Positions 9,001-15,000 of a stretch of DNA of 17,219 nt are shown piece after piece. The first letter of the stretch is position 1. Each line of letters begins with the position of its first letter. This DNA is from a virus. Lineage: Duplodnaviria; Heunggongvirae; Uroviricota; Caudoviricetes. The DNA is taken from the IMG/VR virus record IMGVR_UViG_2547132273_000010; one strand, given 5' to 3'. Made by a program: the position numbers.

Positions 9001-12000
9001 AGTTGATAACCTGTTGCTGAAGTTTTTGTTGCTGAATTTTCTGTTGATGCGGTTGTGAACCAGTCGCAGCATAATATTCATCCACCGCAGCCTGAGCATT
9101 ACCGCCATTCTTGATCGCGTCCGCCGCTACGTTGCTGGCCCCCTTCTGAAGCTCTTTCAGAGAAAGTCCCTGCTGCTTCGGCATAAAATAACCATAATTT
9201 TTCGATATCTCTGCAAATTTGCTGCGATCCCTGACCTGAGCGATAGCCTTATCAACGGGTATCGCCAGCACGGTTTGATCATCAGGGTGCGCACTGCCGT
9301 ATTCTGTTACAGGTTTATGCGCGGTGGAGCCATCGCTGTATGTGAGATCAAGGCCAATAAGTACGTACCCTTCCTGCTGCGCTGGTACGATACTGCCAAT
9401 CCTGGCCTCTTTTATCGTTTTTTCCCCGGTTGAATCAGGCATGCCAATACGCTGTTGTAGTTCCGGGGCAAACACGCCGGAAAGCACATCGAGATTTTCC
9501 GGGGTATTCAGCGAATCGATCGCCATGTCCGGCTTATCACCAAAGATTTTTTGCAGGTTGATCACGGCCTGACCCGCTTTCGCTGCATAGCCTTCGTTTG
9601 ACATAAGAATTAATGGATGTCCCTTTGGCAGCTGCCCGAACAGACGCGTTGCAGCCTCCTGATCGCCAGCCTCAATTGCTTTTCCAAGCGCTTCCATTAG
9701 TGGCTGGCTATGGGCAATCATATCGTTATACTCAAGCCGTCGCTGGTTGTATTTCTGCAACTGGAGTCGCTGCTGCTCCATACCCAGTGACGCATTCCGG
9801 TAATTCTGGTTAGCGTTAAACTCCCTTTCCTTCAGTGCATAATTACGGTCGTCAACTTTGGCTCTGTAATCAAAGTTCCGCTGATCAACGTTTTTATTAT
9901 GTTCAAACTGAGACTGCGCAAACTCAAAATCGCGCTCGTTATTTTTCTGTTGCCGGGCAAGCTGTGCTTCACGCAGACCAAGCTCCTTACGACGGGTCAT
10001 TGCCTGGTCAACGGTGCTGAATCCGGCAAGTAACCCCTGTGCAAATCCGCTCATTCACCACTCCTTAAAACAAAGAACCAGCAATGCCGCCAATTACTGC
10101 TCCAGCAACAGCACCAACAGGACCACCAACGGATGCGCCAATAGCCGCCCCCGTACCAATGCCCGTACCGATATTCTGCTTGTTCTGCGCTTTCTGTTGC
10201 GCCGCCATCTGTTTGTTCGCAGCCTCAATTTCTTCACGTCGTCTGTCTGCGTCACTTATTCCCTGTAATGCCTCACGCCGCGACTGATTTGCAATATCCA
10301 GTAAACCGTATCCCATATTGCCCCCTTACGCTGCCACCAGTTGGCCGCCAACACTCAGTTTCTGTCTTGCCGGTGCAGAAGCCCCCGTCAGAATATTCAT
10401 CTGGCGATCCTGTTCGGCTTCACGGATACCATTTTTCGCGCCAGCAATTGCTAGGGCATTACGTAACCCCAGCGTATTACTGTCGGGATTATCCGGGCGG
10501 TTTACCCCGTATCTCGCCATCTGGTTATCCTGCGCCATCTGCGCTGTACGGAGACTGGAAGTGGCAAGGCCTCCCACCCGTGCAAGCTGTGCATTCATCA
10601 GACTGTTGTTCTCCCCAAGGTCAGCCAGCCTTGCTACACGGGGTAAATATCTGGTGCGCCAGTCGTCGTATTGCTGGCGGGTCAGCGCTGCGGATGTCTG
10701 CCAGTCCCCCTGAGGGCGGGCTGCTCCGGTATAACCGTATCTTGCAAGTGTTTCGTATTTACCGTACTCCATAATCACAGTCTCCAGTTCTGAGCCTGAT
10801 GCTGAATGGCATTAGCGCCGGTGCCAGGTGTTTTAGCACCGCCACTTCCTCCGCTACCGCCAGCCTTATGCATCGCATATGCACCTGCCGCACCCAGACC
10901 AGCGCCAACAAGAGAGGCTCGCCCCTGCTGTTTCGTAAACGCCGCCTGTGCATCCGATTTAGCTTTTGCCAGACTGCTGTCTGCCAGAGAGTTAAAACTC
11001 TGTAACGCATCCGCCTTCTGACCAGAACCGAGAGCGGCAACATCCTGTAGCCCGGCAACATACTTATCTGCCTGCGATACCTGCCCCCGTGTGGTTGTGT
11101 CAATCTGCCCGGTTACCTGATCACTCTGGTTCGCATTCATTACCGCGTTAAAGCGACCACTGGACGGGTCAACACCGGACTGAGCAAGATTACCCGCCAG
11201 CTCCCTTCGCGCTTCACCAAACTGTTTCTGATAACCAAGATTTGTTGTGCCAGCGATATTGTCGTACTGCTGCTCACTGTTAAGGTCATCGACCTTTTCC
11301 ATGAAGTTATCTTCAGCCGGGCGGAGGATATTTTTGTAATCCTGCCACCCTTTCCAGGCCACTTCTTCCTGTGCTATTTGCGCTGCTGTTGGTTTTACTT
11401 TGGTATCACCACCGCCTTTACTTCCACCCATAATGGCCCCCTGGATAACAAAAAACCCTGCCGGAGCAGGGTCAGAATGTGAATTACAATGTTGGTTTAA
11501 ACACAATGATGAAAACTGTAGCAGTCAGACCGCTATCCTGAACACCATGAAGCCATCCTCATCATCCGGCATTCGCTCAAAGCCCAGTCGTTTTCCCAGC
11601 CGGATAAATCCCCGCCTTGCCGTATGGAACTCAGCCCAGCGTCCGCCAGCCAGATGGGTTAATGTCTTCACCTCCGGCAGGTAACGCTCAACGCTGTTAC
11701 TCCCCGTACACACGCCCAGCAACACCAGAACATAAGGGATACCATCAGCACTGAGCACAGAACGCAGCACCAAAAAGCCATCAGGTGCCTCAAAACAAAA
11801 CGCCTGCTTTTTAAGGCAGGCGTCTTTAACTTCATTCATAAATTCAGGGTTGCGGGAATTTCTCACAACACGCTGCATATACCAGAGAATTTTATCGTTC
11901 ATTCTCTCACCTGAAACGGGTGCCATATCGGCTGAACCTCAGCAACCAGTTGACGGGGACTCTCGTCCCCGTCGCGGTTTTCCTACTGCTTACACTGTAA

Positions 12001-15000
12001 GAACGCCGCAAACTCCGCTCCCCACAAATTCAGCCGGAACTCACACAGTGAACCGTGCAACATCCAGATGGTGAAGATAACCGTCATGCAAATTGTGACG
12101 GTGATAAGCGATTTTTGCGACATAGCGCTTGACTCCTTTTACAGAGAGGCGCTAACCTTCTACTTGCTTAAGGTACGAAGTGTTAGGGCCTCGGGTTAAC
12201 GTTAAGTTGACTCGGGGCCTTTCCACATCAGGCCTTCAGGTTCACCCTCCAGCCATCAGCCGAAAGGCATCCACGCATAATTTACGGTTTTTGCCCTGTA
12301 CGGGCAATAAAAAACCCGCCATCACAGCGGGTAGTAAACGGTTACCGGATACAGGTCAGAATTTCAGGCCAATGCCAGCAGTAACGCCACTCGTGCGCCA
12401 GTCGCCAGAGCCGGAACCTTCGTAAGCCACATCCAGTGTAACACTCTCATTCAGGTTAAACTGTGCACCTGCAGCCCACGCAAGGGAGGTTTTTTTCGTG
12501 CTGTTGCTTTCAGAAAATCCGCCACTACTGTTAATATTGTCCTTAATTTTCAGGTCAGCGCTAACTTTAGCAACGCCCATCCCTGCCATCGCATATAAAC
12601 TCATGTACTGATTAACCCGCCATGAAGGCCCCGCTAACAGACTCCAGTAATTCGCCCTGATATCCGTTCTGGCAGAAGCTGCCGGATTCTTAATCTTCCT
12701 GGTATGATCGGCTGACTGCACATCAATAAATGTCTGTGAGTTAGTGAGAGAACGCGTCCATGTAAAAGAGGTGATAACGCCAAAATCATCCGTTATCTCG
12801 TAGCGATACCTGATATTAATGCCCTGTGGATTTTTATCCTTGCCTTCATATCCACTGACCCGACCATCTGTATATTCGCCCAATGAAGAAAAGTAGTTTC
12901 TGTTGACGAAATGACTGAAAGTCTCCCTGTTATGAGCAGTCGCATCCTTTACAAAATCCTTCAGTCCCGGAAACTGAAAGTGCGCATACCCCAGAGAAAT
13001 TGTATGCTCTCCTTCTGCTGCATGTGCAGATAAATTTACACAGGCAATCCCGGAGATTGCACACACAACCAGTGTTGCTATACTCTTCATTTAAGATATC
13101 CTGTATTCAGATAACACGCTAAACTTTTTAATAATACATCTTTTTAGACATTTTAAATGAATATTAAAGACTCGCTTCAACTAATCATATACTGATGTAT
13201 TAATAACCAGGACCTTATCTATATACGGCTTTCGAATATCCCATGTTGCACCACCGGAATAATGCTCACAGGAATATATTTTATTTCCTGTAGCACCAGT
13301 GGATGTGGTATAAATCGGTCGATCATAAGGAGTTCTTTTCCAGTTATAATACCCGACCAGTGCAGGCATGATTGCGCATGGATATCCAAGGTCCTTTTCA
13401 AATTTGATATCAACAGGTATTAACTTCGCGTCAAGCAGCATCATTTCGCCATGATAAATCATCTCACCGTCCGGGTTATACATGGCGATACCATACTCAG
13501 AAGGTGGAGTAACCATATTCGCGAAAGCATAAACCGTCGTAACACCAGGGTTCGTTCCCCTGACAATTACATGAAGCCTTAGTGCATGATATCCATCAAT
13601 CTGTTCATGCGTGTACATGACATCGGCCTTCTTCTCTGTTCTGATAAAGAAAAAACAACTTTTGCCTGACGGGATTGATGTTTTAAAAAAAGACTTTTCA
13701 GTCGCCGGTATGGTGCCTTTGTTGATCAGACACTGCGGCGTAAAACCTGGACTTATCCATACGCTGCCATCCGGCTTCATAATGCTCAAACCGTACATAA
13801 CACTTATCCCCAGAATGTATAAATATAAGATCCCATACCCTGCTCAAGATTCGACCACGTCACCGTATTGTCATTAATGGTTATCTTCGGTACTTTCCGA
13901 TCCGCAAATACATTATTCCAGGGAAATAAACAACATACAGCCTGCAATGATTTCCCGTCGGGTTTATTAGTGTACGTCTTTGAGCCAGACTCCGCTGTAA
14001 ATCTGTCCAGGAAAAATACTGGAGTCAGCACGCCCGTAACATTAACGTTATTTCTGTTATAAATGGCAAAACCGTATTCCAATACTCACCTCCTGATCAG
14101 CGTAATCTGCCTATGCGAACAGCCAGTCGTCCATTCTGATCATAAACCTCAATTTTATCATTGCGGATCACCAGTCCTACATTCTGATTAGAGTAACGAA
14201 TTGTCAGTTGCCCTTGTGACGTAACACTGAAAAGGCCTCCAATATTCAGGTTACCCTGAGAATCAACCTGAAAGTTTCCGTTCTGAATAACGGCACTCCG
14301 GATAACTGGCGAAGTGATACTTACCCCGGCTTTTACCTCATCCGCCACAACCTTCCGCGACACCAGTGTTTCAATCACCGCGTCATAAATCATCGCTTTC
14401 GGGATCACAACCTTGCCACCTGATACCGCAAACGGATAGGCGGTGTTATCCGGGTTGTTCGGGTCAAAGACAAACAACTGCGACGCAGAAATTGCAACCT
14501 GACTTACAGGCCTGCCTTCACTGTCTTTTCCGGCGACAATCCCGATCCCCGCAGTGATACCATCAACTCCCGCTTTTTTTGACCACATTGCCAGAAACGC
14601 CTCACCGCCTTCTTTATCCAGTTTAGTGATGCGCTTGTCGACCTCATTAAGCGATTCACTGGTTGACGAATCCAGTGTGCTAATGCGGGTTTCAATACCA
14701 CCAATCGTTCTTGTCGTTTCTTCCCTGAGAGTCCCCACAACTTCGGTTGTCTTAATTGCAGCATCCTTTACAGCCTGCCCCTGCGCGTTTTTTATTTCTT
14801 TACGCAGCTCGGACACAACCGGCGACTTTGCAGCCTCATCGCGGATCTGGTCAATGATGGCCTTCACGCCGATCTGTGTTTGTGCCTGAGTGCCTTTTTC
14901 AGCATTCCATGGACCTTTCACTCCTGCCGCGTTAACAAAACGTATCCAGTAAAATCCCGACCAGCCAGGGTCAACCGGATCGCCGTAAACCTGCCCCGGC

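Follow-up and report, generated by a model that had tools for sequence, protein, structure and literature searches.

What occupies the gap downstream of lom in the phages that carry Shiga toxin 2 (Stx2), and how is it related to the small RNA 24B_1 reported from the same place? We examined this in a stretch of 17,219 nt from a tailed-phage genome (IMG/VR record IMGVR_UViG_2547132273_000010), called the window below. The window had 100% identity over the query to the Stx2 prophage of Escherichia coli O104:H4 2011C-3493 and phage P13374, and a 99.8% match to 933W, VT2-Sakai and phi24B. The analysis suggested that 11918..12307 very probably makes up a type I toxin-antitoxin cassette of the hok/sok kind that is complete and belongs to a distinct 46-residue HokA-like subfamily. 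Together with hokW-sokW, which is a separate locus, 933W/P13374-type Stx phages would then have two Hok loci. RefSeq has a name for the protein, and the RNA has been published before, as 24B_1; here the antisense RNA is read as the cis partner of a putative toxin gene that had been overlooked.

The putative toxin gene and its ribosome-binding site were located as follows.

11983..12123, minus strand: hok-family toxin open reading frame (ORF) of 46 residues, MSQKSLITVTICMTVIFTIWMLHGSLCEFRLNLWGAEFAAFLQCKQ; hydrophobic helix at the N-terminus, C27 and C44 conserved
12133..12138, minus strand: hok Shine-Dalgarno (SD) sequence AAGGAG, 9 nt upstream of the ATG

The ORF passed the gathering cut-off of the Pfam family PF01848 HOK_GEF (33.2 bits vs 22, E = 4e-8), with its residues 8-44 aligned to positions 6-42 of the 42 in the profile, and it matched PHROG 251 with E = 2.8e-24. 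The layout tested was that of the Hok/Gef family, a peptide of about 50 residues with an N-terminal hydrophobic helix and a C-terminal half of the form (S/D)LCE...E(V/F)AAF. The 46 residues followed it, with the hydrophobic LITVTICMTVIFTIWML and then GSLCEFRL...AEFAAFLQC. When the peptide was aligned to HokA-E and HokW, K-12 HokA was the closest (21/46 identical residues), while HokW shared 15/46. The top NCBIfam model was the HokA equivalog NF007290, at 38.4 bits and below its cut-off of 89. From its sequence, the ORF is best placed in a separate HokA-like subfamily and is not a HokA orthologue. The 56 clusters obtained in a protein search came from E. coli, Shigella and Salmonella and nearly all had 46 residues; M1, Q3, K4, M21, C27, A39, F41, L42, Q43, C44 and K45 were invariant across them. 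Because the same 46-residue frame was intact in all 22 independent loci examined, with a median pairwise ratio of nonsynonymous to synonymous substitution (dN/dS) of 0.24, its preservation is far beyond chance. Two diverged Stx-phage copies, compared with the window ORF, gave dN = 0 at dS = 0.2-0.3. The peptide is under purifying selection.

On the opposite strand, the leader of this gene carries an antisense transcription unit.

12129..12158, plus strand: Sok-type antisense promoter, -35 TTGACT (12129-12134), 18-nt spacer, -10 TAACCT (12153-12158)
12165..12224, plus strand, ends approximate: predicted antitoxin RNA of the Sok type, about 60 nt long, in which 20 nt of 5' tail precede a GC-rich hairpin of 16 bp and UUUCC

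The predicted antisense RNA folded with -27.3 kcal/mol (z = -4.42). It shared its architecture and the hairpin base GGCCUCGG...CGGGGCC-UUU with the annotated SokB, SokC and SokE of K-12. Its 5' end lay 41-43 nt upstream of the hok AUG, vs 44-49 nt in K-12, and it stopped about 20 nt short of the hok SD. For the RNA comparison, 20 distinct copies of the module were aligned, conserved from GGGUGCC to GGCACCC. The antisense -10 was kept in every one of them, as TAACCT in 18 and TATCCT in two. The latter is also the -10 of Sok in plasmid R1, whose -35 and -10 lie at the homologous position. One Stx-phage copy (L011) encoded an identical Hok protein and had a different apical hairpin, kept by compensatory changes. 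This suggests that what selection preserves is a cis-antisense RNA's hairpin and not a seed acting in trans.

The sense transcript was reconstructed from the following elements.

12279..12307, minus strand: predicted hok promoter, -35 TTGCCC (12307..12302), 17-nt spacer, -10 TAAATT (12284..12279)
11918..12272, minus strand: predicted full-length hok mRNA of 355 nt, GGAUGCC... to ...GGCACCC, with limits from homology and from position 1 of the Rfam model RF01794
12256..12272, minus strand: 5' tac-like element GGAUGCCUUUCGGCUGA, partner of the 3' fbi element
11918..11935, minus strand: 3' fbi-like element UCAGCCGAUAUGGCACCC (helix 1), fold-back partner of the 5' end, with AAGGCACCC conserved in relatives
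12185..12221, minus strand: Sok-target hairpin of the hok leader, GC-rich GGCCCCGAG...CUCGAGGCCC (helix 5), which on the plus strand is the Sok-type terminator hairpin
12160..12172, minus strand: leader segment CCUUAAGCAAGUAG, to which the antisense RNA is complementary in its 5' tail
11937..11949, minus strand: strand CUGGUUGCUGAGG of the 3' untranslated region (helix 6), predicted to mask the Sok-target segment 12160..12172 in the full-length mRNA
12003..12018, minus strand: intragenic segment GCGGAGUUUGCGGCGU (the AEFAAF codons), which pairs with the start-codon region AUGUCGCAAAAAUCGC (12123..12108)
11952..11973, minus strand: stable hairpin GACGGGGAC-GAGA-GUCCCCGUC after the stop codon (helix 13)

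The 355-nt RNA had a minimum free energy of -147.4 kcal/mol (z = -5.83), and its two ends were paired. The consensus structure of the aligned copies contained 79 pairs, with 97.9% of cells paired vs 38-44% when the partners were slid by 1-3 columns. Pairs altered on both sides numbered 19, vs 11.5 +/- 1.9 in shuffles (0/500). In the fold-back, the 5' GGGUGCCUU(U)CGGC paired with the 3' GCCGAAAAGGCACCC. This tac-fbi duplex had -24.4 kcal/mol in the window and -23 to -34 kcal/mol across all 20 copies, and its extension covaried: CGGC/GCCG in E. coli was replaced by CGAC/GUCG or CGAUG/CAAUCG in Salmonella. Helix 6 comprised 10 pairs, five of them changed on both sides, and helix 9, between AUGUCGCAAAAAUCGC and GCGGAGUUUGCGGCGU, had 14 pairs with 98.6% of cells paired. 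The SD sat in a small CUCU/GGAG hairpin inside an AGCGC/GCGCU stem (helix 8). Helix 13 had nine pairs, five of them compensatory; by analogy with known hok mRNAs, it is likely the stop for 3' exonucleolytic trimming. This post-stop hairpin also scored as a plus-strand terminator (11951..11974), with TGACGGGGACTCTCGTCCCCGTCG then CGGTTTTCCT, and it has no U-tract on the hok strand. Upstream of +1, the hok -10 fitted TAnnnT in 17 of the 18 relatives; these 17 are all the relatives in which the 5' part of the module is kept. The variants were TAAATT, TAGATT, TAGAAT and TACATT, placed 7-8 nt before the conserved GGGTGCC. Both promoter calls rest on conservation, homology to Sok promoters and a published BPROM prediction.

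The Rfam family RF01794, named 'sok', is actually modelled on the hok-sense leader. It matched the hok strand of hokC, hokB, hokE and hokW with 84-118 bits. In the window it matched 12272..12110 over the full model length (28.2 bits, E = 1.9e-4 in E-value mode). Six relatives gave 31-55 bits with E from 1e-10 to 2e-3. Position 1 of the model aligned to the predicted +1 at 12272 and to the equivalent base in the six relatives.

The module was not confined to this phage type. By megablast, it was matched in 1675 of 5426 complete E. coli genomes. Since copies at 78-85% identity aligned only within 11918..12292 (about 375 bp) and lay amid unrelated contexts, the module can be described as a portable cassette. 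The diverged copies adjoined ogr where P2-like prophages end, a YafO toxin within a tamB/ytfP island, or ykgM, or lay on plasmid p120899_146. They also occurred as tandem pairs in Salmonella, and in S. diarizonae with an Ibs/Sib neighbour. The tandem pairs are about 490 bp apart (L013 1354..2201 and L014 1355..2201), and the S. diarizonae copy (L015 1814..1955) adjoins an Ibs/Sib type I toxin-antitoxin locus that gave 78 bits with Rfam SIB_RNA. In another Salmonella copy (L016, 1349..1500), unrelated sequence replaced the 5' tac part of the leader, while the Sok hairpin, the ORF and the fbi element were retained; this natural truncation should be unable to fold back. A profile search of genome contigs with the protein alignment gave seven loci only, some of them evident contaminants, such as a Xanthomonas contig of 857 bp and a metagenome-assembled genome of Planococcaceae.

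The late genes of the window all lie on the minus strand, and the cassette falls between the following features.

13090..12356, minus strand: lom
12314..12332, minus strand: intrinsic terminator of lom, ACCCGCTGTGATGGCGGGT then TTTTTT, the upstream boundary of the module (terminator scan and sequence)
11926..11525, minus strand: the next annotated gene downstream of lom (homologue of L0129 and vb_24B_43)

An earlier note on this DNA had proposed that an unannotated 46-codon ORF with a Hok signature and a good SD lies between lom and the downstream late genes. The signature was confirmed by the Pfam match above cut-off, the PHROG 251 match and the likeness to HokA. The SD holds with AAGGAG 9 nt before the ATG, and the ORF at 12123..11983 (minus strand) is indeed placed in that gap. 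That it is unannotated is true of AF125520 (933W) and HM208303 (phi24B), where the gap downstream of lom was left empty, and not of RefSeq, which (through PGAP) names the product WP_000078907.1 a 'Hok/Gef family protein'. Several other phage records carry names such as "small toxic polypeptide", "prophage host toxic membrane protein" and "MokW-like host killing". An identical 46-residue ORF lies at 45784..45924 of phi24B, again with no annotation in HM208303.

The antisense strand of this gap has been studied under another name. Nejman-Falenczyk et al. (2015) obtained 2223 reads of one 20-nt RNA, TAACGTTAAGTTGACTCGGG, 80 min after induction of phi24B (PMC4426718). They named it 24B_1 and placed it "between lom and vb_24B_43", at 45692-45711 of phi24B, coordinates that we reproduced in HM208303; a reverse transcription PCR product was also reported (PMC4426718, PMC10732415). 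The promoter p24B_1 was predicted with the boxes TTGACT and CGCTAACCT, followed by an 80-nt hairpin precursor (PMC4426718). In the window, the precursor model covers about 12168..12247, and the 20-mer has one exact match:

12197..12216, plus strand: published 24B_1 20-mer TAACGTTAAGTTGACTCGGG, corresponding to the Sok-type hairpin in its apical part and 3' arm

Thus p24B_1 and the 24B_1 precursor are the Sok-type promoter and antisense gene of the cassette; the DNA is the same, and only the interpretation differs (PMC4426718, PMC10732415). The "weak" antisense promoter candidate of the earlier note is accordingly not a weak chance match, as its -10 is kept in 20/20 relatives and it equals the published p24B_1. 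The antisense strand is transcribed after induction (PMC4426718), and Hfq binds the precursor with a Kd of 25 nM (PMC10732415). Both papers treated the gap as non-coding, and the words hok, sok and antitoxin were absent from PMC4426718 and PMC10732415. In the searchable literature, the only link between 24B_1 and Sok was a mini-review naming both as unrelated items; a link elsewhere is possible.

This identity bears on the published experiments. The 189-nt "delta-24B_1" deletion mapped to 12135..12323, and with it the phage loses not only the antisense gene but also the hok promoter, the whole of the hok leader, four SD bases, and the 3' half and T-run of the lom terminator. Because of these additional losses, the phenotypes of delta-24B_1, quicker induction and less lysogeny (PMC4426718), are not assignable to the 20-mer. 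In this mutant, read-through from lom into the downstream late genes may confound the higher expression of phage genes that was reported. The primers printed for pUC18_24B1 (PMC4426718) mapped to 11870 and 12435, spanning 566 bp and the whole cassette including hok, whereas PMC10732415 gives the insert as "the 189-nt region". Lower ATP was measured in cells with the 24B_1 plasmid or prophage (PMC10732415). A leaky membrane toxin would give such a drop, an inference that depends on the plasmid content. The 20-nt RNA itself is most simply explained as a stable fragment of the Sok-type RNA or of a Sok:hok duplex. We tentatively extend this to a fuller account, possible but short of probable, in which 24B_1 would arise by cleavage of the Sok-type antitoxin RNA that belongs to an overlooked, functional mok-independent Hok module, probably as RNase III debris of the Sok:hok duplex. 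The effects assigned to it, on the frequency of lysogeny, the timing of induction and phage gene expression at the global level, and the lower ATP would then come from removing or over-dosing the whole cassette, together with the loss of the lom terminator, and not from microRNA-like trans regulation.

Several observations weigh against a working hok/sok cassette. No mok frame was conserved when three frames were compared in the window copy and six relatives, although the annotated mok frames were recovered in the positive controls (hokA-E of K-12 and hokW); in this respect the earlier note, which saw no clear mok frame, was right. A sigma-70 consensus scanner run over 11800..12450 detected neither the hok nor the antisense promoter, and the latter was missed because TAACCT matches TATAAT at only 3/6 positions. 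The 28.2 bits of the window remained below the RF01794 gathering score of 59, and a whole-window Rfam scan at gathering thresholds gave no match. A U-rich intrinsic terminator after the fbi element was absent from the hok strand, and the 3' end of the mRNA was therefore set by homology only. The sole difference of the module from 933W, at 12270, changes G to A at mRNA +3 (GGAUGCC vs GGGUGCC). It places an A.C mismatch in the fold-back helix of the window copy, and it is common to the O104:H4-type copies matching at 100%. When the mRNA was truncated in silico at the 3' hairpin, the fold still held the SD and AUG helices closed, so that no activation step could be derived from it. A literature search on the ORF found no data on toxicity, transcript ends or RNase III in the searchable papers, and PMC5155283 and PMC11333237, which combine 'hok' and '933W', contained no relevant mention. 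Through the product name "host toxic membrane protein", the sole hit was a paper on the genome of Citrobacter rodentium. In sum, an overlapping mok frame and a match above the RF01794 gathering score are lacking, while the leader does contain a promoter of its own for a cis antisense RNA of about 60 nt, and the tac-fbi closure is present.

The absence of mok, the weakened fold-back helix and the low Rfam score could also be taken as signs of decay. The locus would then be a relic whose expression or toxicity has been lost, as in the hokA, hokC and hokE of K-12 disrupted by insertion sequences, and it would be carried as a passive passenger between lom and the late genes. The clearly degenerate hokW copy in the same window and the relative L016, which has lost the 5' part of the module, fit this picture. 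However, the frame is intact in 22/22 loci at a dN/dS of 0.24, with no amino acid replacement at dS 0.2-0.3 within Stx phages. Promoter boxes, SD, fold-back and Sok hairpin are maintained, several of them by compensatory changes. The antisense strand is transcribed after induction (PMC4426718), and the lack of mok characterises the conserved subfamily as a whole and is not a lesion of the window copy. A relic is the least probable of the readings that we considered. The possibility raised in the earlier note that the regulation is degenerate was not supported, since the other hok/sok RNA elements are present and covary across the E. coli and Salmonella copies.

The published view, which we also consider improbable, if somewhat less so, is that the locus is a small RNA gene, whose precursor of about 80 nt yields a 20-nt microRNA-like 24B_1 acting in trans on d_ant, the S region and sdhB, with the ORF incidental. 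The phenotypes of 24B_1 have been ascribed to these targets, d_ant, S and sdhB (PMC4426718, PMC10732415), which also speaks against our reading. The 2223 identical reads of 20 nt (PMC4426718), the exact position of the 20-mer at 12197..12216 (plus strand) and the phenotypes reported for the deletion and the plasmid (PMC4426718, PMC10732415) agree with such a gene. So do the binding of the precursor by Hfq and a weak in-vitro pairing of the 20-mer with sdhB mRNA, 8 +/- 5% bound (PMC4426718, PMC10732415). Yet the ORF opposite to it is a Pfam-positive Hok under purifying selection, and the whole cassette, including the architecture of the sense mRNA, is conserved with covariation. The exact 20-mer is confined to 933W-type copies, and L011 replaces the apical hairpin with compensatory changes. 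The deletion 12135..12323 also hits the hok promoter and whole leader, some of the SD bases and the lom terminator, half of which is lost. The small RNA and Sok readings are compatible, as a Sok fragment could also act in trans. Overall, the hok/sok cassette is the reading that we prefer: the module is real and conserved, it is probably functional, and it would represent an uncharacterised mok-less HokA-like subfamily.

How such a cassette would work can be proposed by analogy with R1 hok/sok, studied by Gerdes and co-workers, and with hokW-sokW (PMC8621323). The full-length hok mRNA would be inert. Trimming of the 3' end to the hairpin 11973..11952 would free the 5' end and expose the Sok-target segment; in the in-silico truncation, the 5' end was released into its own hairpin and the Sok-complementary segment became single-stranded. 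The unstable Sok-type RNA, with Hfq and RNase III, would then pair at the target, so that the duplex is cut and no toxin is made. Once the antisense RNA is depleted, the 46-residue peptide would be made and inserted into the inner membrane, leading to depolarisation. The least certain step is the control itself. With no conserved mok frame, mok-hok coupling is an unlikely means of control; more probably the mRNA is controlled directly, by its cleavage and/or by blocking an upstream ribosome-loading site. Between the target hairpin and the hok AUG there was no ATG, GTG or TTG, and an in-frame stop lay at -18. The only candidate substitute for mok in the window copy was an upstream ORF (uORF):

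12152..12226, minus strand: 24-codon GUG uORF with its end 28 nt upstream of the hok AUG, not conserved in relatives

The relatives were inconsistent in their upstream frames, having an ORF in the +2 frame that enters hok, a short uORF, or none. The candidates for control are therefore duplex cleavage, a tisB/istR-1-like block of an upstream loading site and, in the window copy, uORF coupling. As to its role, maintenance of the prophage or the module, help in lysis as for hokW, and exclusion of other phages are all candidates. The earlier note suggested that a toxin of the post-segregational-killing type may stabilise the prophage or the module; the only experiments on the locus, published under the other interpretation, show the opposite sign for some traits (PMC4426718).

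The comparison with known systems places the locus within the hok/sok group, with distinct features of its own. The chromosomal loci hokA-sokA, hokB, hokC and hokE of E. coli K-12 were reportedly described by Pedersen and Gerdes in 1999. They share with the window locus the Pfam family, with HokA closest, the Rfam leader model and the 5'-3' fold-back design, as well as the Sok length, the hairpin base and the distance to the hok AUG. They differ in encoding proteins of 49-51 residues vs 46 in the window, whose ORF is under the HokA cut-off (38 vs 89 bits), and in their RF01794 leader scores of 84-118 bits vs 28-55 in the 46-residue subfamily. They also have mok, as an in-frame extension in hokA, hokC and hokE and in another frame in hokB, whereas none is conserved in the subfamily. 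With hok/sok (parB) of plasmid R1, the window locus would share, by analogy, a tac-fbi-closed mRNA that is inert when full-length, and a Sok of about 60 nt that starts inside the leader and ends in a hairpin complementary to the sokT stem. R1 hok/sok has mok and the window locus has none, so the Sok-type RNA cannot work here by blocking mok translation. The window locus also differs in having no U-tract terminator after fbi, and post-segregational killing is known from R1.

The tisB/istR-1 system is a toxin-antitoxin pair of type I without a coupled leader ORF, in which a ribosome standby site is used. The likeness to the window locus is that the antitoxin would pair about 20 nt upstream of the SD, in a region predicted to be single-stranded only in the processed mRNA. 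There is no sequence or family relationship, and a standby mechanism at the window locus is a hypothesis to account for the missing mok.

The hokW-sokW locus is a type I hok/sok locus on the same kind of Stx2 phage, and both loci respond to prophage induction. In Sakai prophage 5 (Sp5), hokW encodes a 51-residue peptide (MKQQKAM...VDYESEK) with an in-frame mokW, and it aids lysis, not maintenance (Takada et al. 2021, PMC8621323). Its antitoxin sokW depends on Hfq and requires RNase III as well (PMC8621323), and at the window locus Hfq binds the antisense precursor (PMC10732415). It is nevertheless another gene at another place, with 51 residues, an in-frame mokW and an RF01794 leader score of 113 bits. 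The 46-residue ORF was considered as the published hokW and rejected, because the primers of PMC8621323 and the 51-residue length do not fit and only 15/46 residues are identical. A hokW-like sequence was found elsewhere in the window:

156..272 (flanks 26..345), plus strand: degenerate hokW-like remnant (MKAAKGDVNHPAHLCITVIVTALITKKDLCKGG...), with an extra A after ATGAA and an internal deletion

Intact mokW/hokW occupies this position in Min27 and other 933W-type phages, and the remnant is common to P13374-type phages. Because this homologue is degenerate, the 46-residue gene is the only intact Hok-family gene in the 17-kb window.

The downstream end of the cassette touches the annotation of its neighbour. 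In RefSeq, the gene downstream starts at ATG 11926, a position within the fbi element of the hok mRNA. The match of this gene to the PHROG 610 profile sets in at residue 9, which corresponds to ATG 11902, and GGTGAGAG precedes that ATG (11902..11926, minus strand); the true start may thus be 11902. Further into the late operon, an 83-residue ORF at 10065..10316 (minus strand) is called 'bacteriocin' in RefSeq (WP_000540391.1) and hypothetical in phage records. Half of the window is a single ORF of 2806 residues at 338..8758 (minus strand).

Taken together, these results suggest that Stx2 phages carry two different Hok loci; the one that has been studied, hokW, has degenerated in the phage of the O104:H4 outbreak type. 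They join two literatures that do not cite each other, as the phage "microRNA" is exactly antisense to the leader of a predicted toxin gene. The 24B_1 mutant and plasmid alter the expression signals of this gene, and the mutant also loses half of the lom terminator. The RF01794 scores of the subfamily all fall short of the gathering score, 59, which explains the lack of any pipeline annotation of a Sok RNA at this locus; the Rfam sok model misses the whole subfamily at this score, and its antitoxin RNAs are left unannotated. The mok-less subfamily, widespread in E. coli, Salmonella and Shigella, would offer a natural case in which to study how a Sok RNA may silence hok without translational coupling.

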